From NCBI GenBank assembly GCA_964626635.1, contig CAZVFY010000001.1, forward strand, positions 112,498 to 176,497: a DNA stretch of 64,000 bases. The letters run 5' to 3'. Shown piece by piece: positions 28,756 to 43,925 of the stretch. The position numbers were made by a program, and so were the translations under genes. Source of the DNA: an uncultured Candidatus Saccharibacteria bacterium (GTDB taxonomy: Bacteria > Patescibacteriota > Minisyncoccia > Phycocordibacterales > UBA918). The stretch's first letter is position 1; each line of letters begins with the position of its first letter. The notes beneath the pieces were generated by a model, which saw only the letters and a list, made by a program, of their open reading frames with translations, ran no database searches and was not told the DNA's origin.

Positions 28756-28812
28756 ATATCAATAGTATACAAAGTTTAGTTCTGTCAATGCGTGGTTTAC
28801 CCACACAAGCGA

Positions 28813-30681
28813 CTAGCCCGTCCAATTAAACAACAAGATCGAGAAGTCAGTCAGGCTCACATTCCCGTCGCCGTTTATATCAGCCGGTGGGTCAGACGCG
28901 CCACCGTCAGTCTGCCACCAAAACAACAAGATCGAGAAGTCAGTCAGATTAACTGACCCATCTCGATTGAGGTCAGCGGCCATACCGGCAGCTAAGGCTT
29001 GACCAACACCGAAAAACTCGTGCTGAGACCAATTCGTATTAGCGCCGCCGACTTGCTCGGCTTTGGCTCGTACCTGGTACGTATCTCGCGCGTAGGTGCT
29101 TGTATCGAGCGTGATGCGATAGGCACCAGTTTGGTCAGTCAGGGCGGTCGAGGTCTTTTGTACCCCACTCCCGCGCCGACCTGACTCAATGGTGACGGTG
29201 GCGTTTGGTAACCCATAACCACTTACAATAAGGGTCTCACCTGGCTCGACTGGATCAGGTGTGATGGTTATTGTGGGTGTGATATTAATATTTGATAATT
29301 CTGAAGCGCGGGCGCCACTAACTGTAAAGGTGGTGCTAAATACCCCAGATTGCTCGTCATTTTCATCGGTGGCGAACACCGCAAAGGTGTACGCACCCCG
29401 AGCAATATCATCCACCGTTACTTCATATGAGCCATCTGCGTCGGCGCGGACTCGGTCTGACTGAAACCCATCTACCAGCACCGATACCTCTGACCGCGGC
29501 GGTGCAAAGCCGCTGATGATCACTCGACCTTCACCTGACTCGTACGGTCCGTCATTTTCAAATCCGCCACCTGTACCATCACCATCGCGGCGTCCACCAC
29601 CACCGCCGCCGCCCGAGCCGCCCGAGCCGCCCGCACCTGATGTTTGTCCCTCGGTATTTGCACCTCCATCTGATGAGCCACTAGTACCACCACCTCCATC
29701 ACCAGACCCGGTACCATCATTGCCAGAGCCAGTACCATCACCACTCGTACTACCAGTGGTGTTAGATTGACCCGTCGGTTGCGCCAAGACAGTAAAGGAA
29801 ATTAAATAATCGTCAATATTTTCGTTAGTCTCATCGTCAACGCACCGAACATAAAATTCTTGCACTGAGTTTGGTGTGACGGTCACGACCGAAGTGTGTA
29901 CCACTAATCCAGTGTTATCAAACGTAAAAGGCTGTAAGGCAAACGCGATATCTGGCGTCCGGGCATACTTACAAACTGCAAACTCGTTCGTTTCAACGGA
30001 AATTTCTACACTCAGGTTTGTTCCCGCAATCGTACTAGTCGGTGAACCACCGAATCGCTCGGGCGGAATTTCTTCGGTCGTGTCACCGGTGACCGTGACT
30101 TTTTCATTTAGAAATACGGTGAAATCCGCTCCAGCAATTTTCCCGCCGTTTTGCACCGAAAACGGAATGCGATGCAATCCTAGATCCGTGCTATTGCGAA
30201 TCGGTTCAATATCAGCCGGGATAGTAGTCGTGCCCGTGGTCGTGCTAAAGACGTCACGCACGCCGAGGGCACCCAATGTCTGGTTACCAATATATAGCTC
30301 GAGCTCAGCACCAGATGGAATGGACAGGTCAGATCCCAGAGTATATGTAATTAACCCACCCGAGCCACCGGCGATACTGACCCCGTCGACACCAACTCCA
30401 GCGCTCGACGCCGTGTCACGCGCAATCCCATCAACGTGCAGCTGGACGTTACGCACTCCAAAGGTGGTGGTGGCTGGCGTCAGGTAAAAGTCACCAGGTA
30501 ATTGATACGTGAACACTGAACCAGGACCAAATGGTACCAAGGTGGTAAAAGAAAGCGTGTGATTTGAAAATTCCGCCGGCCCAGAATCCGACACCGTGTT
30601 CTTGAAATTTGAAATATTTGTTGCGTCAGTACTACTTGGCCACAGCCCAATCAACACAAACAGAAAGAGTACTCGCCACAT
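28813..30681 (-). CDS. secreted protein with Gly/Ser-rich linker, two Ig-like/carboxypeptidase-regulatory-like domains and a C-terminal dockerin (two Ca-binding repeats)
   Basis: Signal peptide MWRVLFLFVLIGLWPSSTDA. The C-terminus DLNRDGSVNLTDFSILLFWW...DINGDGNVSLTDFSILLFNW is a type-I dockerin duplicated segment (DxNxDGxVNxxD). Confidence 0.7.
   Translation of the reverse strand: MWRVLFLFVLIGLWPSSTDATNISNFKNTVSDSGPAEFSNHTLSFTTLVPFGPGSVFTYQLPGDFYLTPATTTFGVRNVQLHVDGIARDTASSAGVGVDGVSIAGGSGGLITYTLGSDLSIPSGAELELYIGNQTLGALGVRDVFSTTTGTTTIPADIEPIRNSTDLGLHRIPFSVQNGGKIAGADFTVFLNEKVTVTGDTTEEIPPERFGGSPTSTIAGTNLSVEISVETNEFAVCKYARTPDIAFALQPFTFDNTGLVVHTSVVTVTPNSVQEFYVRCVDDETNENIDDYLISFTVLAQPTGQSNTTGSTSGDGTGSGNDGTGSGDGGGGTSGSSDGGANTEGQTSGAGGSGGSGGGGGGGRRDGDGTGGGFENDGPYESGEGRVIISGFAPPRSEVSVLVDGFQSDRVRADADGSYEVTVDDIARGAYTFAVFATDENDEQSGVFSTTFTVSGARASELSNINITPTITITPDPVEPGETLIVSGYGLPNATVTIESGRRGSGVQKTSTALTDQTGAYRITLDTSTYARDTYQVRAKAEQVGGANTNWSQHEFFGVGQALAAGMAADLNRDGSVNLTDFSILLFWWQTDGGASDPPADINGDGNVSLTDFSILLFNWTG
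28828..28947. repeat. perfect 27-bp direct repeat (AAACAACAAGATCGAGAAGTCAGTCAG) 93 nt apart, encoding the two dockerin segments
   Basis: Copies at 28828-28854 and 28921-28947. The reverse complement encodes LTDFSILLF in both dockerin repeats. Confidence 0.9.
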
Positions 30682-30695
30682 ATGTACACCTTACC

Positions 30696-31124
30696 TTACA
30701 TCACCGGGCGCATTGAAGGCTTTTCCCTAACCGCTGGTCGCTGGCGCACAAAATCCAGCACATAATTGAGTACAATCAGCACCAACATGATAAATAATAT
30801 TGAGGCGAGAACGTACGTAGAACGATCCATTGGTTCGCCAGACTCGCGGAGCGAGACTGCTATTTCCCGCTCTTCTAACATCGCTTCACGCGTCGCGAGC
30901 GCCGTCCGCTGTGCGGTCAGCTCAGCAGTGATGCTGTTGAACTCGTTTGGGGCGACAGAGGCCGACATACCGACACTAGCGCCGAGATACTCGATCGCGC
31001 CATCAAACATATCTGCAGTACTGGGGTGGAGCAAGCCAGTGGCATACACCAACGTGATCGCTGTCACCAGGGATCCGATTCGCAGTAGTTTGTGGTACAG
31101 CGTATCACGCATACTGTTAGGCAA
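30696..31124 (-). CDS. small bitopic/double-TM membrane protein with central coiled coil (hypothetical)
   Basis: 142-aa ORF with hydrophobic segments IGSLVTAITLVYATGLL and YVLASILFIMLVLIVLNYVL and a helical A/E/R-rich middle. An 8-nt overlap with the upstream gene and a 14-nt gap before the dockerin gene suggest co-transcription. Confidence 0.4.
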   Translation of the reverse strand: MPNSMRDTLYHKLLRIGSLVTAITLVYATGLLHPSTADMFDGAIEYLGASVGMSASVAPNEFNSITAELTAQRTALATREAMLEEREIAVSLRESGEPMDRSTYVLASILFIMLVLIVLNYVLDFVRQRPAVREKPSMRPVM

Positions 31125-32196
31125 ATAATAGCAACATTACGAGTAAGAATATCGCCAGCACCACCAGCACCGCCAGCAGCGTCACTAGCAACAGTGACTG
31201 GCCGCCCGCTTGCTTGCGGCGGACCACGCGCCGTCCGACGCTGAGCTGCGCCACTTTACGTTTGATGTAGATACGCACCCCGATGACAGTGACTAGCAGT
31301 ACCACCGCTAGCACGCCCAGCACTGGGCCGATAATACTGAACGGCAAAATCCAGAATGTCACCGTGCTACTCATGGTCTTTCGTGCACCATCGAGTCCAT
31401 ACACTGGACTGAGGATCGCTTCGTACCGCCCAAAGCCAATCTCGTCTCCTTCCCATGTCAGTGCAAATTCTCGAGTGTCATTGGGGAAGACACCGGCTTG
31501 CGTGTCATTAAACGCCACCTCTCCTACCCTCGCTCCGAGTGCATTGTAAATCTCCAACGGTCCAGTCGGGCGGACTAGTACATTTCCCTGATTTTCAATC
31601 CGGACTTGGAAATCGACATTTTGTGATCCATACAAGAATTTACCTGTCGAGAACTGTCGGATATTCGCGGTCTCTACTGCGTCACCGCTGACCCTGATAC
31701 TGACGATGTTGGCTACCTGGTAGCCTACCGCTGCGCCACTTTGGCTGATGTCCGGGGCCTCGACCGACACAAAAATCCCCCCAAAATTACTACCTGGCGG
31801 CGCGTCCTCAGGCACATCCATCTGGAACGTAAACGCTCGAGTTGTCCCGGCTGGTACCGTGATCGTGGTGGTCGATAGCGTGATCCAGTCGACCAATTCA
31901 AAGCCGGTTGCATCCAAGTTCGAATTAGCAAACACCGGCACTCCACCATCGTCTACTGATTCAATGTTGCGTGTAAACAAAAAATACGTCTGCTCTTCAT
32001 CGGTTAGGTTACCGACCTCGACAGTACGGTTGACGGTGATTCCGGGATCGAGCGTTTCCTCGATTACTGCCGGCGAGATACTGACGCCGGCACCTGACTG
32101 TGCGTGCAATGCCTGTGTTCCGAAAAGCCACACTGAAACAGCGAGTGTCAGCAGCGTGATGATTCGTAATATCAGTGGGTGAGATAAGGCTTGCAT
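31117..32196 (-). CDS. cell-surface protein resembling the DUF916 (CscA-like) family with C-terminal double TM anchor (DUF3324-like)
   Basis: Signal peptide, then VSISPAVIEETLDPGITVNRTVEVGNLTDEEQTYFLF...VPEDAPPGSNFGGIFV, as in DUF916. The C-terminus has two hydrophobic helices separated by basic residues. Confidence 0.45.
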   Translation of the reverse strand: MQALSHPLILRIITLLTLAVSVWLFGTQALHAQSGAGVSISPAVIEETLDPGITVNRTVEVGNLTDEEQTYFLFTRNIESVDDGGVPVFANSNLDATGFELVDWITLSTTTITVPAGTTRAFTFQMDVPEDAPPGSNFGGIFVSVEAPDISQSGAAVGYQVANIVSIRVSGDAVETANIRQFSTGKFLYGSQNVDFQVRIENQGNVLVRPTGPLEIYNALGARVGEVAFNDTQAGVFPNDTREFALTWEGDEIGFGRYEAILSPVYGLDGARKTMSSTVTFWILPFSIIGPVLGVLAVVLLVTVIGVRIYIKRKVAQLSVGRRVVRRKQAGGQSLLLVTLLAVLVVLAIFLLVMLLLFA

Positions 32197-32244
32197 ATTG
32201 CACTAGTGTAGCAGCCGCAGAGGATTAAATATTTCTGTATACAC

Positions 32245-32278
32245 AAAACCACCCAGGCCGGATGGTCTGGGTGGTTTT
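32245..32278 (-). terminator. bidirectional Rho-independent terminator after the WxL-like gene
   Basis: AAAA CCACCCAG gccggatggt CTGGGTGG TTTT: perfect 8-bp GC-rich stem with a 10-nt loop, flanked by an A-tract and a T-tract, immediately 3' of the minus-strand CDS ending at 32328. Confidence 0.75.
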
Positions 32279-32327
32279 GATGCTCTCAGTGACTAATAGA
32301 TTCAGCCAGTGTAGCGGGTGCGAGCAA

Positions 32328-33461
32328 CTAGAAGGTTGGTGTCGCGATGTAGGTCAGAGTTGTGTTGTAGTCGTCACCAGCTTCCTGGAGTGGAGTGATT
32401 TCGAGCTTGTACGCAACTTGTGTTACACCTTCGTTGGCAACTGTACCGTTGGTTACTCCGTCGTGTGAGAAGATTTCTCGTGGCGTAGTACTCGCTGATA
32501 CGAATAATGATGTACCAAATTCATCAGTGTTCAGGTCATCTTCTGAAGTCAGACCCCAGTGACCGTAGGTGTTTTCACTATTGACTGTGTTAGTCGGTGA
32601 AGCCCAAACCGTTGGTGTATCGGTGTAAGTACCGTCAACGAATCCGTCGATGTCAGCTCCGGTTGATGAGATCAGATTAGAGTCCTGCTCGACTGTCACC
32701 ACAAAACCATTGATGGCGTTAGTAGTAACATTGAGCTGCTGTCCAATGATCTTGGCGTTAGCAGATCCTGGTGCTACTTCACCAAATGGGATGGTAGTAG
32801 TTGAACTGTCATCAGTGGTAGTCTCGCCATTGACGTCAGTACCAGCTGCTAATGGGCTAATTACAAAGTCAAAGATAGATGCCACTTCGGCAGTGACTTC
32901 AACTGTGTCGATGATAGCTACTCGAGTACGACCACTGTCCGGTGTACCGTTGGTTGCATCCGCAACTTCGACGAGAACCTCGTACGAGTCGCCGATGCCG
33001 GCCGCTGCTACTTTAGCTGGATTGACGATTTTACCGTCTGCGACCACGACTTGAATAGTATCTCCCGCGCCGGCAGCCAGACCGTCAAAGGTAATGCTGT
33101 CAGCTGTTGCTGTAAATGTACCTAGCGTGAATGCCCCATCGCCAGTTACCGTGAGGTCAGCTCCGACAACTGTTTCGATGTCGTCAAACGGTTCTGAGAC
33201 TGCACCCTGATCACGAGCATCCCAAGTGATGGTGATGTCGTCAGCCGTGGTTATAGTCGAACCGGTTGGTACGGTGAACTCAATGGTGTGAGAAGACGTC
33301 ACGCTCGGATTTGAACTCGAGAGTGTGTTACTCACGCTAGTAAGGTTAGCTGCTTGTGCAGAATGGAAATACCCTGCTGAGGCAAATACCACTGCACCAG
33401 CAACAAGTGTCGCGACCACTCGTTGCGAAATGCCAACTGAATTGGTTGGAATTACGAACAT
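32328..33461 (-). CDS. secreted surface protein, candidate WxL-domain (CscB/CscC-like) protein
   Basis: Signal peptide (AGAVVFASAGYFHSAQA), a T/S/D-rich beta-rich body, and a C-terminal region with YGHWGLTSED (W-x-L) that ends ...TLTYIATPTF. Sits next to the DUF916-like gene. The second WxL motif is degenerate, so the call is tentative. Confidence 0.4.
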   Translation of the reverse strand: MFVIPTNSVGISQRVVATLVAGAVVFASAGYFHSAQAANLTSVSNTLSSSNPSVTSSHTIEFTVPTGSTITTADDITITWDARDQGAVSEPFDDIETVVGADLTVTGDGAFTLGTFTATADSITFDGLAAGAGDTIQVVVADGKIVNPAKVAAAGIGDSYEVLVEVADATNGTPDSGRTRVAIIDTVEVTAEVASIFDFVISPLAAGTDVNGETTTDDSSTTTIPFGEVAPGSANAKIIGQQLNVTTNAINGFVVTVEQDSNLISSTGADIDGFVDGTYTDTPTVWASPTNTVNSENTYGHWGLTSEDDLNTDEFGTSLFVSASTTPREIFSHDGVTNGTVANEGVTQVAYKLEITPLQEAGDDYNTTLTYIATPTF

Positions 33462-33788
33462 GTATTATTTTATTTAATTGTAAATAACGTGGCGCTCACT
33501 TCCTTATATTATGTAAAGAGTGAACTAACCCGGCACAACACTTGTATGGAGAGATGTCTGGCATTCGTATGTGAGAAAGTCTCAGCCTGTGAATGCGACA
33601 TCAATGTTGTACCGATCTACGATTATTTTACGCTACTACCCGAGTGCTTGTCCGATTACTGCTGTTGATAACTACTATTGGACGTCCCTGTATCGCTTAT
33701 TCCAGCCTTATTCGCCTAGTCGCAATAGCTTGCTTTCGGCCATGTCCCATGGATCCCGTCATGTACAAACGTCTTTTTATGGTCGATG

Positions 33789-35063
33789 TTAGGCGGCTTT
33801 GACCGTAGGCAAGTCACTCCAGCGCGTCGTATAGGCTGGACTGCGAGACGCTGATTTGGGTTGCCACTGCCGGGTGCGCAATCGCGACCCGATCACCACT
33901 AGCTCTCGATCTGCCTTGGCATTGATTGCGTCTAGGGCACTCAGCAGTGTCTCGTTAGTATCGGCCAGTTTGGCAAAAAAGCTACTGGTCGCCACGCCAG
34001 CGAGTGTAATACCGCTGACTGCCACCAGGACTTTTTGGTACGGTACGCCGGGTTCATGAAGTGCGAGTAACTGTGTTTGTACCATGCTGACTAACGCAAA
34101 TGTGTCATTGGTTGGGTTCGCCAAAGCGATCTCGCGAGACCCGCCACGCAACACAAAATCCCCGTGACGACTGGTGTGTAGCGATACGCGGACCGCCCCT
34201 GCGACCGCCTGCATAGCGCGCAGTTCCTCGGCGATATGCCGGGCGTGGTAGCTGGCGGCGTCTTGAATAATGGATAGATTATTTGTAGTACGGCTAAAAG
34301 ACCGTGAGTTCATCAAGCTCTTTTGTAAGGCTCGGACTGGCGTGACCGGGTACGCCACTGACCCGCGCAGTTCGGCCTGTAACCGTACCGCTCCGACTCC
34401 ACCACACGACCGAATCAGGGTACTATCGGCCTGCAATAATTCACCTACCGTACTGATACCAGCGGCGCAGTAGCGCTCGAGCATCCCTCGCCCCACACCC
34501 CAGACTTCGCCAACGCCAAGTGACCGTACGTCAGAGTGCCACCAATCCTCGGTCTCAACAAAAATACCAGTGTCGCGCTTGGCGGCACTCACGGCACATT
34601 TAGACAGAGTTTTAGTGCGTGCCACCCCGATCGAGACCGGAACACCGGTTTGTTGCCAGATCGCAGCCCGCATAGCAGCGATATTGTCCTTGACGTTCTC
34701 ATCAGCTGCGATCGTAAAAAAGCATTCGTCGATCGAGTACTGTTCCACACAGGAAAAATAAGTGCGGATGACATCAGAGACCCGTCGAGACAGATCACGA
34801 TACAGCGTAATGTTACCTGAAAACAATGTGACATCATTGTCTTTGAGACTATCTTTTACCTTAAAATAGGGTGTACCCATAGGGACACCTATGTCCTTTA
34901 TCTCTTGCGAGCGCGCGATAATGCAGCCATCGTTTGATGATAAGACAGCCACTGGTTTGGTCGCCAAATCCGGCCTAAATAGTCGTTCGCACGACACGAA
35001 GAAATTATTGCAGTCGACCAAACCAATCAGCTGGCCTTGGTTGCTATGACTCATTTGATTCAT
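33789..35063 (-). CDS. umuC: Y-family DNA polymerase, UmuC-like (Pol V catalytic subunit)
   Basis: N-terminal LIGLVDCNNFFVSCERLFRPDL matches the Y-family start (palm domain with DxNxF). A 4-nt overlap with the upstream S24 peptidase gene matches umuDC organisation. Confidence 0.85.
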   Translation of the reverse strand: MNQMSHSNQGQLIGLVDCNNFFVSCERLFRPDLATKPVAVLSSNDGCIIARSQEIKDIGVPMGTPYFKVKDSLKDNDVTLFSGNITLYRDLSRRVSDVIRTYFSCVEQYSIDECFFTIAADENVKDNIAAMRAAIWQQTGVPVSIGVARTKTLSKCAVSAAKRDTGIFVETEDWWHSDVRSLGVGEVWGVGRGMLERYCAAGISTVGELLQADSTLIRSCGGVGAVRLQAELRGSVAYPVTPVRALQKSLMNSRSFSRTTNNLSIIQDAASYHARHIAEELRAMQAVAGAVRVSLHTSRHGDFVLRGGSREIALANPTNDTFALVSMVQTQLLALHEPGVPYQKVLVAVSGITLAGVATSSFFAKLADTNETLLSALDAINAKADRELVVIGSRLRTRQWQPKSASRSPAYTTRWSDLPTVKAA

Positions 35064-35506
35064 ACACGCGCAAATTGCCGAACCGTACCAGTGACGACAC
35101 CCCAGACGTACACATCATCGGCCCCCTCAATCACGATTGGTTCGTAGCCAGTTTGCGCCGAACGCAGTTCAGTCGCGGTAGCGGTTTTGTAGAGTTGCTT
35201 AACGACCAGTTCACCAAACACCGCCGCAACGACGATACTGCCGTGCGTTGCGGTCACTGACCGATCGACCACCAGCACGTCGCCATCAAATATGCGCAAT
35301 CCCTCCATCGAGTCACCCGACACTCTGACAAAGAAGGTTGCAGTGGGATTGTCGACCAGTAAATCATTAATATTAAGTGGTGCCTCGACCAGATCATCAC
35401 CGGGCGCGGGGAATCCAGCCGCGGGGCGCGATACATACAATGGCCACTGCCGTGAATCGACATTGAGTGCAGTGGGTTTGATGTGGGTGACGCGCGTGGT
35501 TGGCAT
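35060..35506 (-). CDS. umuD: S24 LexA-like autopeptidase, UmuD-like (Pol V accessory subunit)
   Basis: 148 aa with no DNA-binding domain. Has the FFVRVSGDSMEG Ser nucleophile motif and a downstream KQLY lysine region. Translationally coupled to umuC. Confidence 0.8.
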   Translation of the reverse strand: MPTTRVTHIKPTALNVDSRQWPLYVSRPAAGFPAPGDDLVEAPLNINDLLVDNPTATFFVRVSGDSMEGLRIFDGDVLVVDRSVTATHGSIVVAAVFGELVVKQLYKTATATELRSAQTGYEPIVIEGADDVYVWGVVTGTVRQFARV

Positions 35507-35515
35507 AGCAAAATA

Positions 35516-35541
35516 CTAGCACGTCCCCTACTTTGTGCTAG
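35516..35541. promoter_or_regulatory. inverted repeat CTAGCAC-N12-GTGCTAG 10 nt upstream of the umuD start; candidate SOS-type operator or weak terminator of the upstream gene
   Basis: 7-bp perfect arms at 35516-22 and 35535-41. The right arm overlaps the stop codon of the CAP gene. On the minus strand it is followed by TATTTTGCT and then the ATG. Confidence 0.3.
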
Positions 35542-36695
35542 GCAATCGTAACGGTGCCGACGAGCGCGAACTGCACCCACCATAAACCTCCGACCAGCAG
35601 CAATAGTGCGACAGCATAAGACACTTGTCTAAAATGTAATCGCCTCGTCTCACCTAGTAGCGCAATGATGCTACAAATGATTGCCACCCCAACGAGCAAT
35701 GAATACACCGTGTCGAGGATCAGTTGCGGTCTGGTCAGCAGGCCGCTGAGGCCAGTATGCCCGCTATGCACACCATTTGACACTACTACTGGCGGTAAGC
35801 TGGCCACTGGCTCGGCGTCGACCTCGGGCACAAAGTCTGACGCAACCACGCGGTCAGATGGCACCAGAGGCGGTGCGAGAGTAGGTAGGCCCACCGGAAT
35901 GGGCGGCATAGTTGGACTGGTTTGGCCACGTGGCGAACTTTCATTTACTGGTGCAGGTGCGGAGTCTGATACCGGTGCCGGAGTCGCGAGTCCAGCTATT
36001 GCAGCGTCTTCGGTGGCGGCCGCAAGTAATTCGACTGGCTCTGGTGTCGCCGGCGTTGGTTCTGACACTGACAATGGCTCACTGAGGGTGGTTGGCGCAC
36101 TAACAGTGTCGGGTGCGGCACGCGTGGCCAAGGCCGGCGCTATCGGCGTGTCAGTTGGTGTGCCGAATAATTGCACTACGAAGATAGTTTCGTACCCTTC
36201 GTATTGACCACGAGCTGTCCCGACGCCAATCTCGGTGAATTTGCTGTCGACGATGTTTTCTTTATGGGTTGGTGAATTCATCCAGGCGCGCACTACGGCG
36301 TCCGCATCATTAAAATGTACGGCGAGATTCTCGCCCGCGTGTACATAGTCATAATTGACGTCAGCAAAAAACTCCCAGGGTGTCGTACCGTCTGGTGCAA
36401 AGTGTGCAAAATAGCCGTTTGCAGCCATGTGTTCGGCTTTGGCGGTCGCCGCTGCATCCAGCAGCGGCGACCGAGCGAGCGATGTAGCTGCGTACCCGGC
36501 TCGCTCGACGTTTGTTTCTTCGACCACCACCGCCGGCAACACCGCGCCGACTAGCCAATCTGACGATCGCCACAATAGCGCTTGGGCACTGGTACCGACG
36601 AACGTCAGTACGATCAGCCCGCCAACACACGCGAGCGCTACTTTCTCAAATTTATTGGGGGCGTACGTATCGTCTGGCGCAAACCACTGTCTCAT
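35538..36695 (-). CDS. CAP/SCP/PR-1-like (YkwD-type) extracellular domain protein with N-terminal signal anchor, Pro/Thr-rich linker and C-terminal TM segments
   Basis: CAP motifs GYFAHFAPDG...HAGENLA...AWMNSPTHKENIVDSKFTEIGVG. The start is placed at the internal ATG 36693-95 (MRQWF), 40 nt after the sortase stop. The six-frame ORF extends to 36770. Confidence 0.7.
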   Translation of the reverse strand: MRQWFAPDDTYAPNKFEKVALACVGGLIVLTFVGTSAQALLWRSSDWLVGAVLPAVVVEETNVERAGYAATSLARSPLLDAAATAKAEHMAANGYFAHFAPDGTTPWEFFADVNYDYVHAGENLAVHFNDADAVVRAWMNSPTHKENIVDSKFTEIGVGTARGQYEGYETIFVVQLFGTPTDTPIAPALATRAAPDTVSAPTTLSEPLSVSEPTPATPEPVELLAAATEDAAIAGLATPAPVSDSAPAPVNESSPRGQTSPTMPPIPVGLPTLAPPLVPSDRVVASDFVPEVDAEPVASLPPVVVSNGVHSGHTGLSGLLTRPQLILDTVYSLLVGVAIICSIIALLGETRRLHFRQVSYAVALLLLVGGLWWVQFALVGTVTIA

Positions 36696-36735
36696 ACATT
36701 GTATCGTACCATTTTCGAAGTACGTGCCGGTGCCA

Positions 36736-37419
36736 CTATGTAGATTCGCGAGTACCAACGAGCTCGGCAAATACTACGCGGTTATGCGAGTACCGCTGTG
36801 TCCCCTGGTCAAATATTCCGGAACAAGTAATTAGTCGTAACCCAGCGTGGTCGATGTCTTGGTATACCAAGTCAGTCGGGAAATCGTTCTGATCGTAGCG
36901 CTCGTTACGCGTGACCGCATATACGAGTGACACCCCATCATCGCGTTCAACAATCACTTCGTCGCCGGTTTGCAGTTGTCCGAGCGAGAAAAACACCGCC
37001 GGACCACCCACCGAGTCAACGTGCCCGAGGATCACCGAGGGCCCTAGATTGCCCGGCACTGGACTGTAGCGATACCACCCGACCTGATCGTACGTGGCTG
37101 GCACAGCCACTTCTCCAGAATCGAGCAAGCCGAGCGGATCCACAAACGTACTGTCTACTTGCGCGCGAGGGACAATCAGACGAGTCGGCCTCGTATCACT
37201 GGTGGCAGATACAACGAGAGTATCGGTTGCAACTGTAGATGTAACTGGCTCAGTCACTGCGGGCTGTACGCTCCTCGGACCTGTCACCGGATCGCCGCCT
37301 GTTTGCTGGCCGAGCACCACCAATATAACTAGCGCACACAAAAGTACGCCGACAGGCGAACCTGCGGCGTACTGCATGTGGTTTTTTAGTTGTGAGAGGA
37401 TTTCTCTAGCCTTGTCCAT
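36736..37419 (-). CDS. sortase family transpeptidase (class E/F-like)
   Basis: Signal anchor, catalytic His in ILGHVDS, Cys in the LRLITCSG (TLxTC) motif, and a downstream Arg (YSHNRVVFAEL). The start is placed at ATG 37417-19 (MDKARE), 13 nt after the upstream stop. Confidence 0.7.
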   Translation of the reverse strand: MDKAREILSQLKNHMQYAAGSPVGVLLCALVILVVLGQQTGGDPVTGPRSVQPAVTEPVTSTVATDTLVVSATSDTRPTRLIVPRAQVDSTFVDPLGLLDSGEVAVPATYDQVGWYRYSPVPGNLGPSVILGHVDSVGGPAVFFSLGQLQTGDEVIVERDDGVSLVYAVTRNERYDQNDFPTDLVYQDIDHAGLRLITCSGIFDQGTQRYSHNRVVFAELVGTREST

Positions 37420-40327
37420 GTGACTGCATTCGAACAAATCGAAGTGCAAATGTCAAGAGAGCAAGGATGGCAAGAGCTCCGGCCGCGTTCGTGCCAGTGG
37501 CTGTTCCACCGGCTCCGGTATTAGCACCACCGCTTGGTACTACGGTGACCTGCTCGCCTGCAACTAGTGGAGTTGGTGCGGCGGTTGTGCTGATACCAGC
37601 CACAGTGCCGGCCACCTCGTCACCAGACTCGATGTCAGCGACCACTAGAGCGCCGCCAGCTCCACCGTTGTTGCTTCGATTAACGCGCGTTGCTAACGGA
37701 TTTGACGAGTCGTTTTCATCTGGATTCAAGCTTCCTTGATTACCGGTCGCTCCGCCGCCAGTACCACCGGTACTGCCACCGTTACCTGATCCTGTAGCAA
37801 CGTACGGAGTACAACTACTGTCCAAGATTACAATCGCGTCGACATCATACCCATCACCGCCCACGGTTGTTTGGTCAACTAATCGGACGTGGGTGACCTC
37901 CGTCAAACCGGCTACAGCGATGTCAACACTGCCGTCGCCAGTGATTGTACCAGCTGAAGCAAAGTTAACTCCGTCATCCGATAGTAAGACTTCTACAGCC
38001 TCTTTCGTGTCGCGGTTGCTACCGGTCACTTCGTAGATTGCAATATCGTCGCCAGCTGTATCAACTGCTTTTTGACCAGTAAATTCATAGTCTAGTTCAC
38101 CGTTGATACCGAGTGAGAAGAAATCACTTGGGTTAAACGTTGCTTCGCCGCCGGTAACGTTTTGGTAGCTAGCGATTGTATCAAGCGCCGTGAGAGTTCG
38201 TCGCTCAGTCGCTACTGGATTGCCGTCACTATCTACTGCATTGTCAGTCGATCGAACGATCGCGCCCTCAAGCGAACAAACGTTTGGTGTCGTGTCTGGA
38301 GCTACACACCCTGCAACGGTGACCGTAAGCGTTCCGCGATTATCTCTGTACCACTTATTTTTCTCTTCAAAAATGGCAAAGTTCATCGGGCTGTCTGTTC
38401 CGCTTACCAATGTTTGGTACGTATGAGCTGCGTTGTACGCACCCCACTCAACGTCTACCCCATCAATATAGAGATCGTGGGTTTCTTTCCCGGCTGCTTT
38501 CTTTGTCTGACCAGTTGGATCCCAGAACGCTGGTGATGATGGCTGGCTAGATCCAAATCCATTAAATGAGCTATATTCTGCATCTGATACATTGTCTTTT
38601 GATGTGCTGTTGCCGCCTAATCGATCAGACTCTTTACCGGTCCCGGGACCCCACGTAAAGGTACCGGATACAGTAATCAAGTAGTCTTCAGTGCTGAGCA
38701 AGTCAATGTCAGTCGTGGCTCCGGCTGGATTACGCGAATCAACGCTGAGGGTGGCAATTGTCTCGACTGTATGATCGGCTGGGCACTGGAGGACTGGGGT
38801 CGGTTCTGATGCTGGACACAAAGTAAACGTGTACGTAGCATTGTTTCCATCCACGTCATAGACAACCATGGTGTTTTGACCCGCAACCGCACCAAACACA
38901 CCGGGCTTAATAAAGTTCACATCACTCCATTCATTGTCTGACAAATCTTTCACAACGCCGTTGATTTCGACCCGATCAATCTCGCCGCCCTTATCGCGTA
39001 ACTTGTAGCTAATCATCGAATAGCCAAGTTCACAGGTAGTGGTGAATTTTTCTTCTGGTTTGATAGTCGCGGTTGGTGCGCTCGACTCTTTGTCTCGACC
39101 GGCACACAGCGTCACTATAATTTCTGTCATGTTGCCAGCAGTATCAAACAACTGAATTGTGTTCATGCCTTCAACCGCACCGTCACGTCCGGCCCGCACG
39201 CCATTAAGATCACTGAATTTGTCATCCTTCAAGTCTTTCTTTTCGCCGTTGATAAGTACGTAGTCAATTGCAACATTGTCTTTCAATTTGTAACTGACAT
39301 TTGAGAATCCTTGACCTGATTCGCACCGGTTAGCGCCATCTTTTTGGTCAATTTGTGGTTTTTTAGTGTCAATAGGAGTTGGTTCAGGACATACTGCGCC
39401 AAGACTTCCAGCCGTGGCAGTACGACTCTTGCCTTCAGCTGGGTTACCAAGTGTCCATTCAATTGCTTCAGTCGCTAGGTCAAATTCAACCGAAAACGCT
39501 GCATTTTCTGGCCGAAAGACTCCAGTATCATTAACAAATGGTGTGCGGCCAGGTAGAAATTCTGTTGGCTGTCCACGGTCTGGTCCATCCTGTACCTTGT
39601 TAAAGTCACCAAAATCAATGGTTACTGTTTCGGTGTTGCTATTTGTGTATCCAAAGTAGCCGGTCGCAGTCACACCGTCTTCATTTGGCAGGTAACACTC
39701 AAAGATTGGCTTAATTTCCCATGTTGGGTTGGTGTCAGGCTGATTTGTGTCTTCTGACTCATTTTCACCTCCCTGGTCATCTTCACCCATAGAAACAACG
39801 GCTTTAACTGTTGCAGTTTGAGCAATTAGAATAGTATTGTCACCAGTCGTTACTTCGGTGAAAATATCATACTCACCTTCGGCATCATTTTGATAGCAAA
39901 CACTCTTGCTTTGTGAATTTGTTCTAATAGTCACTTGCGTAATTGGTCCATTGTCGACATTACACACACCCTCATGAGTTCCGCCAAAGAATGTACCTCC
40001 AGCACCGCCGTCAGACAATTTCACAGTAGTTGTCTCAGTAGCCTTTTGATCAAGACTTAACTTGAAATTAATTGGCTGTCCAACCACGCCCGCAATGTTT
40101 CCCAGCTCTTCAATTTTAGTTGGTGGTGTTGGTGTATCTGGCGTGTCTAAGGCCTGAACGTCAGACAAGTCCTCTAATGTCAGATCTTCGCCTGTCTCGG
40201 TTTCAATCTCCGCATTTAATTCAGCATCCTCTTGCGCTGTCGCCACCGGCACGCTACCGATTGCAATTGCCACCAGCGCGAACGCAGTGAAGCACTTTGT
40301 AATAAAACTTTCTTGCATACGTATCAA
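37406..40327 (-). CDS. large secreted surface protein (973 aa) with tandem ~85-aa repeats and C-terminal hydrophobic anchor plus basic tail; putative sortase substrate
   Basis: Signal peptide MIRMQESFITKCFTAFALVAIAIGSVPVATAQ. Repeated ...C..G...SYKL(K/R)D...ID.V.ING..KDL...LC modules. The C-terminus is ...AGALAILALLTFALRFVRMQSHGQG, a sorting-signal-like topology but without a canonical LPXTG. Confidence 0.55.
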   Translation of the reverse strand: MIRMQESFITKCFTAFALVAIAIGSVPVATAQEDAELNAEIETETGEDLTLEDLSDVQALDTPDTPTPPTKIEELGNIAGVVGQPINFKLSLDQKATETTTVKLSDGGAGGTFFGGTHEGVCNVDNGPITQVTIRTNSQSKSVCYQNDAEGEYDIFTEVTTGDNTILIAQTATVKAVVSMGEDDQGGENESEDTNQPDTNPTWEIKPIFECYLPNEDGVTATGYFGYTNSNTETVTIDFGDFNKVQDGPDRGQPTEFLPGRTPFVNDTGVFRPENAAFSVEFDLATEAIEWTLGNPAEGKSRTATAGSLGAVCPEPTPIDTKKPQIDQKDGANRCESGQGFSNVSYKLKDNVAIDYVLINGEKKDLKDDKFSDLNGVRAGRDGAVEGMNTIQLFDTAGNMTEIIVTLCAGRDKESSAPTATIKPEEKFTTTCELGYSMISYKLRDKGGEIDRVEINGVVKDLSDNEWSDVNFIKPGVFGAVAGQNTMVVYDVDGNNATYTFTLCPASEPTPVLQCPADHTVETIATLSVDSRNPAGATTDIDLLSTEDYLITVSGTFTWGPGTGKESDRLGGNSTSKDNVSDAEYSSFNGFGSSQPSSPAFWDPTGQTKKAAGKETHDLYIDGVDVEWGAYNAAHTYQTLVSGTDSPMNFAIFEEKNKWYRDNRGTLTVTVAGCVAPDTTPNVCSLEGAIVRSTDNAVDSDGNPVATERRTLTALDTIASYQNVTGGEATFNPSDFFSLGINGELDYEFTGQKAVDTAGDDIAIYEVTGSNRDTKEAVEVLLSDDGVNFASAGTITGDGSVDIAVAGLTEVTHVRLVDQTTVGGDGYDVDAIVILDSSCTPYVATGSGNGGSTGGTGGGATGNQGSLNPDENDSSNPLATRVNRSNNGGAGGALVVADIESGDEVAGTVAGISTTAAPTPLVAGEQVTVVPSGGANTGAGGTATGTNAAGALAILALLTFALRFVRMQSHGQG

Positions 40328-40392
40328 TAGTTATAGTTCAGTAATCGCCTACCCACCAGACTCGTTTGAGTGCGGCTAGAATGGTTTACTCC

Positions 40393-40420
40393 ACAGTACG
40401 CAATGTGGACTTTTTGTCAA
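40393..40420 (-). promoter_or_regulatory. candidate sigma70-type promoter for the 973-aa surface protein gene
   Basis: On the minus strand: TTGACA (plus 40415-40420), 16-nt spacer, TACTGT (plus 40393-40398), about 60 nt upstream of the ATG at 40327. Confidence 0.35.
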
Positions 40421-40436
40421 GTTGTACAAACAAATA

Positions 40437-41291
40437 TTATTGTGGTCGGACGCGCATATTCATCACAGCGTGACACGGATGCGCTTGATTGGTAGCGATT
40501 TTTTGCTCCATTTTGTCAACGTATGCTATCAAAGCAGCGCGTTCTTTTACCAGTGTGGCTCGGGTAGGCTTGCTGCTTTTGAGGGTCATAGGCATCACGC
40601 CACAGGCGGTGAACCGCCCAACAGTGGTGGTCGGTGCGCCAAATAGTCGCACCATTTGGTTGTCCTGGTGTCCGACAAATTGCTGCACTAATTCTGGTTC
40701 TGCAAATACTATCCAAGACTGATTGTCTGCATCTAGTAATACCACTGTCGAAGTTGAGCGCCGATCCTGCACGACCCCCATTAACCTGCCTTGTTGGGGT
40801 GCTTGCCATAACCTGGCTTCACGTTCGGCTTGGGAGGTATACATTGGCGCTACATCACCGAGCCAAGAGTCAAAATACCAGCCAAAATTATTGATATACA
40901 GTGCAGCACCCAGTAGCACGCTACTGCATACACTAGTACCGGCCAAGAATGCCACCGACGAGCGATACCCTCGCCCCACGCGGCGTAATTGCCTAATCGC
41001 AACGAGCAACATTAAGGCAAACACGCCTAGCCATACAAATGGCAGTGTATCAATCAAAAACGTCACGAAGTTACTGTGCGTCGCCTCATAAAAATCATAA
41101 TACCGATACATCCCCGCAAACGACAATACTGCTAGTGCCACGCCGCCGAGCGCGATGGACCCTACCCACAAGACCCAAGTCGCGCCACGCCGACACAAAA
41201 ACCAATACCGCGCGCGCGGCGCAATGCCTTGCTGATCTATGCAATTATAGACGCGATCTTTAAGTGGTTCTCTGGTGGGTGGAGTGGTCAT
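40437..41291 (-). CDS. membrane protein of unknown function; candidate anti-sigma factor by position
   Basis: Sits 10 nt downstream of the ECF sigma gene and is co-oriented with it. Cytoplasmic N-terminus, 3-4 TM helices and an extracytoplasmic C-terminal domain. No zinc-finger anti-sigma motif was seen. Confidence 0.3.
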   Translation of the reverse strand: MTTPPTREPLKDRVYNCIDQQGIAPRARYWFLCRRGATWVLWVGSIALGGVALAVLSFAGMYRYYDFYEATHSNFVTFLIDTLPFVWLGVFALMLLVAIRQLRRVGRGYRSSVAFLAGTSVCSSVLLGAALYINNFGWYFDSWLGDVAPMYTSQAEREARLWQAPQQGRLMGVVQDRRSTSTVVLLDADNQSWIVFAEPELVQQFVGHQDNQMVRLFGAPTTTVGRFTACGVMPMTLKSSKPTRATLVKERAALIAYVDKMEQKIATNQAHPCHAVMNMRVRPQ

Positions 41292-41301
41292 AGACTTTTC
41301 T

Positions 41302-41934
41302 TTACATACGGATAGTGTCGGTTTTTATGACAGTAGAGAGCTGTTTTTTGCCGCGGTGGATCAGCGTCCCAACTGAGCCAATCGGAATTTTGAGGATGTC
41401 GCTAATTTCTTCGTACTCTTTGTGTTCAAAAAATCGCAACAGCAACACTTGACGATACTTGTCGTCGATTTGTAATAAAGCCTGGTTGATGACCTCTGCA
41501 TTGATACCTTGGTCGAACTGCACATCAGCGTCAGTCACGTCACCGGCTGACATAAACCCGATCAGTTCGTCACTATCGCCGACCATATGCCCCTCGGGTC
41601 GAACGTTTCGTTTGCGGTACCAGCTGATGGCTTCGTTGTGCGCGATCCGGTACACCCAGGATGAAAACTTTAATTTTGGATCAAAGCCGTTGATGTTGCG
41701 GTAGGTTTTAAGGAAAATATCTTGCAGTACATCCAGTTGATCGTCCGGGTTACGCACCCCGAGCCTCGTGATGTATCGTCGTAGCGGCGCCTCGTAACGT
41801 TCGATCAATACACCGAACAATTCTTTGTTGTCGGACACGCGGGTGGCGATGGCTTCGTCACTCTCAGGAGTTGCTGGTTGTTGTTGCGAGTCATCCACCG
41901 TACAATAGTGACATGAATACCCCCGACAAGCCAA
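41302..41934 (-). CDS. RNA polymerase sigma-70 factor, ECF subfamily
   Basis: Region 2 (LFGVLIERYEAPLRRYI...DVLQDIFLKTYRNINGFD...FSSWVYRIAHNEAISWYRKR) and region 4 (VLLLRFFEHKEYEEISDILKIPIGSVGTLIHRGKKQL). The true start may lie downstream of the six-frame start. Confidence 0.8.
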   Translation of the reverse strand: MACRGYSCHYCTVDDSQQQPATPESDEAIATRVSDNKELFGVLIERYEAPLRRYITRLGVRNPDDQLDVLQDIFLKTYRNINGFDPKLKFSSWVYRIAHNEAISWYRKRNVRPEGHMVGDSDELIGFMSAGDVTDADVQFDQGINAEVINQALLQIDDKYRQVLLLRFFEHKEYEEISDILKIPIGSVGTLIHRGKKQLSTVIKTDTIRM

Positions 41935-41945
41935 TGACTTTTCCG

Positions 41946-42647
41946 ATGCGCCTCAACAAATATTTGGCCCATACTGGAGTCTCGTCCCGGCGCGAGGCAG
42001 ATACACTGATCGAGAAAGGCCAAGTCCTCATCAACGGCAACGTGGCTGCCCTCGGCACCCAAGTTCAAGACGGTGACGACGTGATAATCAAAGGCAAAAC
42101 CCCCAAGAAACAATACCTCGCCTATTACAAAGGGCGCGGGATTATCTCGCACTCACCGGAGGCGGGCGAACAAGACATCGCGACGCAACTCGAAAAGACC
42201 TACGGGCTCAGAGGTATTCACCCCGTCGGACGCCTCGACAAGGACTCGGAAGGTTTAATGATATTGACTAATGATGGTCGCCTAACCGGACCACTACTCG
42301 ATCCAGCCAGCTCCAACGAGAAAGAGTACGACGTCCTCGTCGACAAGCCGCTGACTGGTATGGCCGCGCGCATTATGGCCGGTGGTGTCGATATCGAGGG
42401 CTACCAGACTAAGCCAGCCGAGGTCACCCGTAATCCCAAGAATGACAAGCGATTCAAAATCGTCCTTACCGAAGGTAAAAAACACCAAATCCGCCGCATG
42501 TGCGCGGCGGTCGGGTACCAAGTCCAGTCACTTAAGCGAGTGCGAGTAATGAATGTAGAGCTGGGTGAGCTGAAACCAAATCAATTCCGCAAGATCAGCG
42601 GTGACGAGTTGGGCGAACTAGCTCAGCAGCTAGGTATTACATTATAA
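41946..42647 (+). CDS. pseudouridine synthase, RsuA/RluB family (S4 domain + catalytic GRLDKDSEGL)
   Basis: MRLNKYLAHTGVSSRREADTLIEKGQVLING is an S4 RNA-binding domain. The catalytic Asp motif is GRLDKDSEGLMILTNDG. The six-frame ORF starts at 41871; ATG 41946 is preferred because it matches the family N-terminus. Confidence 0.8.
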   Translation: MRLNKYLAHTGVSSRREADTLIEKGQVLINGNVAALGTQVQDGDDVIIKGKTPKKQYLAYYKGRGIISHSPEAGEQDIATQLEKTYGLRGIHPVGRLDKDSEGLMILTNDGRLTGPLLDPASSNEKEYDVLVDKPLTGMAARIMAGGVDIEGYQTKPAEVTRNPKNDKRFKIVLTEGKKHQIRRMCAAVGYQVQSLKRVRVMNVELGELKPNQFRKISGDELGELAQQLGITL

Positions 42648-42659
42648 CCGTAATTCGGG

Positions 42660-43052: not shown

Positions 43053-43655
43053 TCAAGTATTTTTTAGGTCCAGCAGTTGCTCTAAGAGCATAACGATTTT
43101 TTGTAAGAGTTCTATTTGCTCGAGTAGCTGTTTGGTCTGGTATTGTGCCGGAGTGTCAATAGTGACGTTTAGTGTGCCGCCGGTAGAATCCCCGTTTGTC
43201 GCAGCAATGAGGTCTTTCGCTAGGTCAGAATCATCTGCAAATACGTTTGATACGAGGTATTCGTCCGGGGTATCACCACTGCGCAAGACGTACACTTGGG
43301 TTGTGTCATCGGCTGGTGGCGCACCGGCGCACAAATAACCCCACGTTGGATCAACTGTAAAACTCACCGTCAGCTGCTCTGGTGCTGCACCCTGATGTAC
43401 CGCGCTAATTGCGACCGTTTGTGTCACAGCACCAGCCACGAACTGTTCATTCGGATCATCTGAACCAGTTGCTGTCAGCTCACCGTCAGTATTCAATACT
43501 TCGGCCGTCACGATAATTGCTTGGCTGTCGGCCGCCGTATAAAATTCAATCGAGCTAACAGGGTCAAGGCAAGAAAGCGCCTGGGCGGGTTGTGGTTGCG
43601 CAAAATAACCAGCTGATAGAATTGCAGCAAACAAAAATGGTGTAAAGAATTTCAT
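43053..43655 (-). CDS. secreted protein with C-terminal coiled coil, hypothetical
   Basis: The six-frame ORF runs to 43754, but the classic signal peptide MKFFTPFLFAAILSAGYFAQPQPAQA starts at ATG 43653-55. The C-terminus has the heptad segment QLLEQIELLQKIVMLLEQLLDL. Confidence 0.4.
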   Translation of the reverse strand: MKFFTPFLFAAILSAGYFAQPQPAQALSCLDPVSSIEFYTAADSQAIIVTAEVLNTDGELTATGSDDPNEQFVAGAVTQTVAISAVHQGAAPEQLTVSFTVDPTWGYLCAGAPPADDTTQVYVLRSGDTPDEYLVSNVFADDSDLAKDLIAATNGDSTGGTLNVTIDTPAQYQTKQLLEQIELLQKIVMLLEQLLDLKNT

Positions 43656-43683
43656 ATTTATAAAGTATACCAATGTAAATGCC

Positions 43684-43710
43684 CCTGTCGATCGTCTCGA
43701 CAGGGGCAGG
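43684..43710. promoter_or_regulatory. perfect 11-bp GC-rich palindrome overlapping a putative -35 (TCGACA) of a promoter for the 43655 gene; alternatively a hairpin ending typA transcription
   Basis: GCCCCTGTCGA tcgtc TCGACAGGGGC. Minus-strand TCGACA, 16-nt spacer, then TATACT about 9 nt before the ATG, which implies a near-leaderless mRNA. Confidence 0.35.
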
Positions 43711-43925
43711 GTGAGGATGAGGCGTACCAGACGCATGTTCGCAGCAATCAGCACCGCGGCATCTCCAGAGCTTCGGTTGCGCGTGCCATTAGCTACTAAC
43801 GCATTGATTTGACCTTAGCTACAGGTTAGGGTATTGCAAGGCTGCCTCCCTTTAAGTAACAAAAGCTGTTTCTTGCTACCGTTCGGCCTCAATGAGAATG
43901 TATCATCTAGGAACGCAAATTGCAA

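Follow-up and report, generated by a model that had tools for sequence, protein, structure and literature searches.

The locus comprises a umuD gene and, directly 3' of it on the same strand, a umuC gene, which lie in a 64,000-nt stretch of DNA from a Paceibacteria MAG (hereafter the window) and follow a gene for a CAP/YkwD-like membrane protein (Table 1). The two genes are presumably co-transcribed, and a 4-nt ATGA at 35063..35060 on the minus strand is common to the end of umuD and the start ATG of umuC, which confirms the overlap described by the first-pass annotation. The CAP gene, whose product matches Pfam CAP (7.8e-18) and TIGR02909 YkwD (4.6e-26), ends in a TAG stop codon at 35540..35538. 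An inverted repeat and the hexamers of a putative umuD promoter are found at the junction of CAP and umuD.

Table 1. Features of the umuDC locus (positions of the window).
Feature	Position	Strand	Remarks
CAP/YkwD-like membrane protein gene	36770..35538	minus	longest ORF 410 aa; 385 aa according to JGI
Inverted repeat CTAGCAC-N12-GTGCTAG	35516..35541		7-bp arms; exact match
Putative weak -35 hexamer CTAGCA	35541..35536	minus	17 nt from the -10 hexamer; overlaps the CAP stop; from consensus and comparison
Putative -10 hexamer TAGTAT	35518..35513	minus	6 nt 5' of the umuD ATG; read from the sequence
umuD	35506..35060	minus	148 aa; S24 autopeptidase subunit of Pol V
umuC	35063..33789	minus	424 aa; Y-family polymerase subunit of Pol V

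The umuD product carries Peptidase_S24 (PF00717, 6.7e-26, residues 22-138) as its sole Pfam domain and has a short N-terminal arm with no DNA-binding (wHTH) domain, in agreement with its earlier description as a LexA-like S24 peptidase without a DNA-binding domain. Its score on NCBIfam NF007621 (131.5 bits, cut-off 110) lies above the curated family threshold; the LexA equivalog TIGR00498 yielded only 72 bits (cut-off 111), and the alignment to LexA was restricted to the LexA C-terminal domain (residues 83-202). When the protein was aligned to E. coli UmuD (8gmt_B) and UmuD' (1umu), with an identity to UmuD of about 40% over 135 residues as judged by eye, A30/G31 fell on C24/G25 of E. coli UmuD and G31 on residue 1 of UmuD' (1umu), while Ser66 (GDSM) and Lys103 (VVKQL) aligned with S60 and K97. 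We predict A30/G31 as the cleavage site and Ser66/Lys103 as the catalytic dyad, both conserved with respect to E. coli.

For the umuC product, Pfam returned IMS (PF00817, 1.2e-32), IMS_C (PF11799, 2.1e-12) and DUF4113 (PF13438, 1.1e-14), and the NCBIfam UmuC model NF002955 was matched over its full length (3-422 of 422) at 253.8 bits. This score does not reach the curated cut-off of 431, but NF002955 was still the best model, the Pol IV models scoring at most 137.8 bits, about half of the UmuC value. We take the protein for a divergent UmuC and not for a DinB, in line with the first reading of the locus. D17 and D112-E113 sit in VDCNNFF and SIDEC motifs, and a PDB sequence search with UmuC gave no match at 1e-20 or better. 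The C-terminal DUF4113 domain and the adjacency and overlap of the two genes are further points of likeness to umuDC of E. coli. The earlier reading as a complete UmuD/UmuC pair of the Pol V type is supported. The Pol V label of both proteins is already given by the JGI and NCBI pipelines, and the pair alone adds little new.

The first-pass annotation hinted that the module, wedged inside a surface-protein region, might be plasmid- or island-borne, and neither composition nor synteny bore this out. The GC contents of umuD and umuC (0.533 and 0.555) and their GC3 (0.56-0.57) fall inside the range spanned by 30 other genes of the window, as does their RSCU distance, and neither an integrase nor a transposase turned up among the umuDC neighbours. 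The CAP gene is the 5' neighbour of umuD in most related loci, and the order ECF sigma, 284aa, sortase, CAP, umuD, umuC, 377aa, 359aa, 142aa, 622aa is shared by many Paceibacteria MAGs. Because the cluster is syntenic in dozens of relatives, umuDC does not form an island; we take it, on these sequence comparisons, to be probably part of the core genome and vertically inherited, not mobile cargo. More than 1,600 UmuD homologues were retrieved, of which the best 120, from metagenomes and Patescibacteria MAGs, are 59-99% identical, or 59-75% once P0001, which is from the same population, is left out, the nearest sequenced relative being only 72% identical in UmuD. Most Paceibacteria relatives have orthologous umuD and umuC (58-73% and 38-55% identity, respectively) in the same cluster running from CAP to 377aa. 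In these, however, umuD and umuC are about 350-3300 nt apart, with a GH18 gene, an opposite-strand NUDIX gene or both in the gap, whereas the lineage of the window shares a compact overlapping umuDC operon with L003, L085, L111, L016 and L166; the roughly 84 kb of its genome covered here contain neither a NUDIX nor a GH18 gene.

The region between CAP and umuD appears to hold a promoter, of which the -35 hexamer CTAGCA matches TTGACA at three of six positions, and a simple promoter scan of the region did not flag it. The case for it is comparative. Of 56 distinct regions upstream of related umuD genes, 45 have a TAnnnT ending 4-10 nt before the ATG, where about 15% would be expected. The closest clade (L091-L102) shows cTGACA-17-TATACT right after the CAP stop, positionally equivalent to the hexamers of the window, and L166 shows CAAGCA-17-TATACT, with a base-for-base alignment of the -35 region (AGCACAAA) and the same 17-nt spacing. 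In most Paceibacteria relatives a leaderless -10 box such as GGTATACT stands before both umuD and umuC, and other genes of the window have the same leaderless -10 layout. Since the putative -10 hexamer stands so close to the umuD ATG, a leaderless or near-leaderless mRNA is implied, and we infer a umuD promoter producing such a transcript. We also considered GGTATACT(GCA/AG) as a regulon-specific motif and rejected it: the same letters occur before the 7440-aa gene, before HSP20 and at the separate umuC promoters of relatives, and the motif reads simply as the local (extended) -10 consensus.

The inverted repeat CTAGCAC-N12-GTGCTAG lies, exactly as first described, directly 5' of umuD, with a gap of 10 nt between its end and the ATG, and is found once in the window even when two mismatches are allowed. 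Its distal arm covers the TAG stop of CAP and the -35 hexamer, and its proximal arm reaches 3 nt into the -10 hexamer. A repeat of this general kind does not exceed chance: perfect 7-bp inverted repeats with a spacer of 0-20 nt number 137 in the window (about 82 expected in random sequence), that is about one per 470 nt, and five of the 137 have a 12-nt spacer. A second copy was sought in about 84 kb of genome (the window and about 20 kb of flank along the 210-kb source contig, JGI Ga0450789_213872; roughly 8% of an assumed 1 Mb or so) and none was found. Likewise, none of 56 distinct relatives has the repeat at its umuD promoter, not even L166, the nearest that shares the promoter layout. In these genomes, by contrast, the intergenic region that follows in the cluster shows strong nucleotide conservation, and functional non-coding sequence of the cluster is therefore detectable at these distances. 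Contigs of the same population (L080-L084) are 99.94-100% identical and hence offer no variation informative on the repeat. A CTGA-N12-TCAG in part of the closest clade was discarded as a shared repeat, being 4-5 bp long, shifted by 3 nt at its centre, different in sequence and not general.

The repeat might act as a weak intrinsic terminator or insulator of the CAP gene, umuDC then being transcribed mainly from its own promoter. We consider this unlikely, although it deserves some weight. The hairpin CUAGCAC-12 nt-GUGCUAG (7-bp stem, 4 GC pairs) is followed by UAUUUUGCU, with 5 T (U in the RNA) in the next 8 nt, and L004-L007, L087, L103, L119 and L121 have real terminator hairpins in the interval from the CAP stop to the -10 box of umuD. 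The window hairpin reaches only -8.0 kcal/mol, however, compared with -26 to -29.5 in L004-L006 (-11.6 in L007), its 12-nt loop is beyond the usual 3-8 nt, the scan of the region did not flag it, and the 66-nt region around the repeat folds no better than shuffles (z = -0.14). Under a relaxed rule, equally weak terminator-like features number 13 in the window against 8.4 in shuffles and are mostly intragenic, and the closest clade (L091-L102) as well as L166 and L167 have no hairpin at the position of the repeat. The hairpin and its T-rich tail would fit the earlier proposal of a weak CAP terminator, but the low stability, long loop, shuffle score and chance frequency leave it a weak alternative.

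An SOS operator was the other function proposed for the repeat. Searches with E. coli LexA and RecA queries (tblastn in the case of LexA) matched umuD alone in the window and 58 related loci, which upholds the statement that the window has no lexA; nor were lexA, recA or other SOS genes found in the approximately 84 kb of genome. The repeat also differs from all known LexA boxes compared, including the motifs listed in PMC8565304, as had been noticed at first sight. It could still be a new type of SOS box, bound by the LexA of this Paceibacteria lineage. The known divergence of LexA motifs (PMC8565304) would allow for this, and the umuD promoter of L120 contains, between its -35 and -10, a perfect LexA box of the Gram-positive type, AGAACGCTCGTTCA, from which it follows that LexA control of umuD probably exists somewhere in the group. 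But this lone LexA-like box, present in one of the 57 Paceibacteria umuD promoters examined, is GAAC-N4-GTTC, unlike CTAGCAC-N12-GTGCTAG; it is missing near the umuD promoter of the window even with one mismatch, and the repeat is not conserved in relatives. With no lexA in the window, the 20 kb of extra flank or 56 related loci, we find this reading hardly credible, and with no LexA-box match, no occurrence in related promoters and no second copy in about 84 kb, the SOS-operator proposal was not supported.

Work by Sanchez-Osuna, Barbe & Erill (2017, Environ Microbiol 19:3465; cited in PMC8565304) is said to concern the DNA-damage network of Patescibacteria, the superphylum to which the host of the window also belongs; the literature citing it gave no LexA motif. 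PMC8565304 places translesion polymerases among the usual core SOS genes and describes umuDC or dinB under the control of S24-family repressors whose palindromic operators (GGA-N5-TCC, CTAA-N5-TTAG) are novel. Bacteroidetes LexA-like proteins, HdiR and UmuDAb are thus precedents for non-canonical SOS repressors, and S24 repressors other than LexA that use new motifs have been described in Bacteroidetes, Streptococcaceae and Acinetobacter (PMC8565304). In contrast to UmuDAb, the UmuD of the window lacks a DNA-binding extension at its N-terminus, no gene for a COG2932-like repressor is found near umuDC, and the dyad, in its sequence and 12-nt spacer, fits none of these operators and is not conserved.

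Since the umuD promoter has no canonical LexA box, any transcriptional control would need another site. The repeat could accordingly be thought of as the operator of a lineage-specific repressor other than LexA, which would block the -35 and -10 hexamers of umuDC and come off upon DNA damage or another stress. The arms of the repeat fall on these hexamers, where binding of a repressor would be expected, and tight repression is usual for error-prone polymerases. If true, a CPR bacterium with a reduced genome, whose relatives show no conserved operator, would have evolved independently a damage or stress switch for its leaderless Pol V operon. We give it a distinctly slim chance, as none of the 56 distinct related promoters has the dyad, not even that of L166 with the same -35 sequence and spacing, no further dyad stands near a gene start in the roughly 84 kb of genome, and repeats of this kind arise at the chance frequency given above. 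The search for a candidate regulator gene in the conserved cluster found none besides the ECF-type sigma factor. Moreover, the centre-to-centre distance of the half-sites is 19 bp, which is unusual for LexA-type dimers.

Our preferred explanation, which we hold to be probable but well short of assured, is an ordinary, vertically inherited umuDC operon with its own weak leaderless promoter and an incidental repeat. The repeat is most likely a lineage-specific by-product and most likely not a dedicated SOS operator or terminator. Its two CTAG cores would derive from the CAP stop codon and the -10 box, the symmetry being extended by just three base pairs. It is unsuitable as a seed for an SOS-box search. 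Under the same explanation, umuDC would be transcribed from a weak sigma-70-type promoter beginning at the very end of the CAP gene, with the start of transcription at or beside the umuD ATG. As umuC lacks a Shine-Dalgarno sequence and shares the ATGA with umuD, its translation would proceed by termination-reinitiation. The activity of Pol V may then be controlled mainly post-translationally, as family knowledge suggests: RecA-stimulated self-cleavage of UmuD at A30/G31, carried out by Ser66/Lys103, would give UmuD', which would assemble with UmuC. The operon differs from E. coli umuDC in that it has no CTGT-N8-ACAG or other recognisable LexA box, in its apparently leaderless mRNA, whose promoter extends into the end of the upstream gene, in its host, a reduced-genome CPR bacterium, and in a UmuC below the NCBI curated cut-off (254 against 431 bits).

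A conserved, covarying leader RNA of roughly 100 nt (33624..33522) was also observed directly 3' of umuC. Rfam gave no match in or around the umuDC locus, the leader RNA included, and this RNA is probably the more valuable lead of the locus.

In Paceibacteria, the Pol V genes are fixed members of a conserved sortase/surface-protein cluster. Judging by the promoters compared here, they appear to be transcribed into leaderless mRNAs with no conserved SOS operator at the promoter, which suggests that mutagenic synthesis in these reduced genomes may be controlled largely through the processing of UmuD.

Judged by their sequences, the two ORFs are UmuD and UmuC by function and membership, in agreement with the first-pass annotation, which had described a complete umuD-umuC module with a 4-nt overlap and a UmuD-type S24 protein without a DNA-binding domain; the overlap reads ATGA, and annotation pipelines likewise already label these proteins Pol V. 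The 148-aa protein, too short to fit a DNA-binding domain, carries one Peptidase_S24 domain (6.7e-26), passed the NCBIfam UmuD model (131.5 bits, cut-off 110) and failed the LexA equivalog (72 bits against the 111 required). It aligned across 135 residues with E. coli UmuD (8gmt_B, 1e-27) and UmuD' (1umu), its Ser66 and Lys103 matching S60 and K97 of E. coli UmuD; G31 falls on the first UmuD' residue of 1umu, and the cleavage site is therefore placed at A30|G31. Every defining UmuD feature tested was present. The 424-aa protein contains IMS, IMS_C and the UmuC-specific DUF4113, and its best NCBIfam match is the full-length UmuC model (254 bits), with Pol IV models scoring at most 138. The refuting case named earlier, a dinB lacking a UmuD partner, does not apply. 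UmuC has the expected domains, but its 254 bits lie below the strict curated NCBIfam cut-off of 431.

Features of the window and of one related locus
Feature	Position	Strand	Remarks
Giant 7440-aa ORF	4288-26610	minus	Pentaxin, Laminin_G_3, DUF2341 domains
Conserved cluster	about 28800-42650; also L002-L017, L093, L096, others		large surface protein before sortase
umuC-377aa spacer	33788..33462		327 nt
Leader RNA	33624..33522	minus	rod-shaped, ~100 nt, downstream of spacer promoter
Conserved spacer promoter	33654..33625	minus	
Conserved blocks upstream of spacer promoter	33640-33788	minus	directly after umuC stop
umuC	35063..33789	minus	424-aa ORF
umuD	35506..35060	minus	148-aa ORF
Putative umuD -10 TAGTAT	35518..35513	minus	6 nt upstream of ATG
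Putative umuD -35 CTAGCA	35541..35536	minus	17 nt upstream of TAGTAT
Inverted repeat CTAGCAC-N12-GTGCTAG	35516..35541		exact match
Gene starts with close -10	RluB 42647 region, CAP 36695, 359aa 32196, HSP20 28755		
Terminator-like hairpin	43680-43708	minus	12-bp stem, -24 kcal/mol, T-rich tail
LexA box of L120	about L120:3897-3908		29 nt upstream of umuD ATG

The earlier suggestion that umuDC is plasmid- or island-borne, wedged into a surface-protein region, is contradicted by composition and context. The window lies on a 210-kb contig from a JGI metagenome. GC (0.533 for umuC, 0.555 for umuD), GC3 and codon usage fall inside the spread of values seen in 30 other genes of the window, no mobility genes were found among the neighbours, and the gene order, namely RluB (divergent, on the opposite strand), ECF-type sigma, 284aa, (973aa), sortase, CAP (CAP/YkwD), umuD, umuC, 377aa, 359aa (WxLIP-like), 142aa and 622aa (Big_6/dockerin-like), recurs whole or largely in dozens of related loci. 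Therefore, umuDC is an established member of a conserved cluster rather than an insertion, the Pol V genes being fixed among sortase and surface-protein genes in the window and its relatives. UmuD homologues at 58-73% identity are plentiful in Paceibacteria/Parcubacteria MAGs and metagenomes.

Elsewhere in the window, cohesin- and dockerin-like proteins lie near the 7440-aa ORF, as does an HSP20 gene that overlaps the gene of a 510-aa cohesin-like protein. The window has a single strong terminator-like hairpin, situated within the 5' end of a called 233-aa ORF (43754..43053), about 220 nt after BipA; this ORF or its start may be mis-called.

Many window genes lack a Shine-Dalgarno sequence, and their start codons follow a -10-like hexamer at 5-8 nt (e.g., RluB TACAAT-6, CAP TGgTACGAT-7, 359aa TACACT-8), a pattern which suggests that leaderless mRNAs are widespread in this genome. 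A TAnnnT whose last base falls 4-10 nt ahead of the umuD ATG occurs in 45 of 56 distinct relatives (expected, about 15%). In the closest clade (L091-L102, 70-73% identity), cTGACA-17 nt-TATACT-9 nt-ATG comes right after the CAP stop, and the window sequence cTAGCACaaa-...-TAGTAT-6-ATG aligns with cAAGCACaaa-...-TATACT-7-ATG of L166, a relative with adjacent umuDC (72% identity). A generic promoter scan left the umuD -35/-10 site unflagged. From these hexamers close to starts, in window genes and relatives, we infer a weak promoter belonging to umuDC itself, which overlaps the CAP 3' end and would give a leaderless mRNA.

The inverted repeat is present 5' of umuD exactly as first described, in a single copy in the window even allowing two mismatches. 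Its distal arm (35541..35535, gene strand) includes the CAP stop codon TAG (35540..35538) and its proximal arm (35522..35516) stops 10 nt short of the umuD ATG; the CTAG cores come from the stop-codon context and the -10 box, which leaves CAC/GTG alone to extend the symmetry. The window has 137 perfect inverted repeats of 7 bp with spacers of 0-20 nt, five of them with a 12-nt spacer. No repeat occurs at this position in any of the 56 distinct relatives, L166 nearly keeping the left arm within its -35 region and reading TTCTGTA at the right arm. The next intergenic region is strongly conserved in the same genomes, so functional non-coding sequence is detectable at these distances.

The SOS-type operator proposed earlier is disfavoured by the absence of the repeat from relatives and by a scan of ~84 kb of the genome, in which no promoter carried another dyad (spacer 10-14, at most 3 mismatches). 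As already remarked, the dyad is unlike known SOS boxes: GAAC-N4-GTTC (up to 1 mismatch) was not found at the window umuD promoter, and the repeat resembles none of the LexA/SOS motifs listed in PMC8565304. The reported lack of lexA in the window extends to recA, to 20 kb of extra flank and to the related loci examined. A novel LexA box is thus highly improbable, and an operator for a lineage-specific non-LexA repressor seems quite doubtful. That the repeat is a weak terminator or insulator of CAP, whose stop codon it covers, is conceivable though unlikely: its hairpin reaches -8.0 kcal/mol with a 12-nt loop, whereas terminators at the same position in L004-L006 reach -26 to -29.5 kcal/mol, shuffled sequences fold as well as the region does (z = -0.14), and a relaxed rule finds 13 terminator-like features window-wide, compared with 8.4 for shuffled sequence.

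Among 57 relatives examined, one (L120) has a GAAC-N4-GTTC box at umuD, about 0.05 being expected by chance across the scanned promoters, which hints that LexA control, where present in the group, uses a Gram-positive-type box. The box is a perfect AGAACGCTCGTTCA, placed between the umuD -35 and -10 hexamers.

umuD and umuC stand apart in most Paceibacteria relatives: gaps of about 350-3300 nt hold a GH18 gene, a NUDIX gene on the other strand, or both, and umuC is then preceded by a leaderless extended -10 promoter of its own (TGGTATACTAG-6/7-ATG). The compact overlapping arrangement is shared, among relatives examined, only with L003, L085, L111, L016 and L166; no NUDIX or GH18 homologue was found across the 84 kb covered for this genome. 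The intervening genes encode a secreted GH18 protein and a NUDIX hydrolase (e.g., L010:6449-8220, L096:4403-4945, L167:6457-6951). In L107, a second, partial umuD-like segment (2830-3132, 55% identity to residues 4-106) adjoins the full umuD directly upstream.

Downstream of umuC, the spacer keeps its length (292-345 nt) and nucleotide blocks in 22 relatives and holds a leader RNA, which sits before the 377-aa surface-protein gene. Pairing in the 9-bp closing helix reaches 95.5%, 7/9 pairs show compensatory changes, and covariation is 0.568 against 0.261 in shuffles (0/500 reach 0.568; slid controls, at most 49% paired). All 22 sequences fold individually as P1-P2-P3-hairpin, with GGCUGAG and UCUCCACA invariant. 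Searched with a covariance model, 32 loci (10 outside the seed) each gave a single copy, at constant position, and the window gave no further one; Rfam had no match. The RNA may act as a 5' stabiliser or attenuator. On its 3' side come a variable hairpin, the conserved GUUAUUUA and then a stretch rich in A that runs to AAC-AUG. The blocks after the umuC stop comprise, in 21 genomes, GAC(A/G)TTTGT(A/T)C, TTGA, cATGTCc and the invariant GTTATCAACAG, one mismatch from the DnaA-box-like TTATCCACA; a GGACAT...ATGTCC dyad co-varies with AGACAT...ATGTCT. Possibly, these blocks are regulator-binding sites for the surface-protein operon.

In this family, RecA-stimulated cleavage of UmuD gates Pol V activity. 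We lean, with moderate confidence, towards a joint reading in which the weak promoter overlapping the CAP end would yield a leaderless bicistronic umuDC mRNA, UmuD would be translated from the 5'-terminal AUG and UmuC via reinitiation at the ATGA overlap, Pol V would by analogy be gated by RecA-stimulated UmuD cleavage, and the inverted repeat would be incidental. Compared with the E. coli umuDC paradigm, the operon stands apart in having no recognisable LexA box and a promoter predicted to be leaderless.
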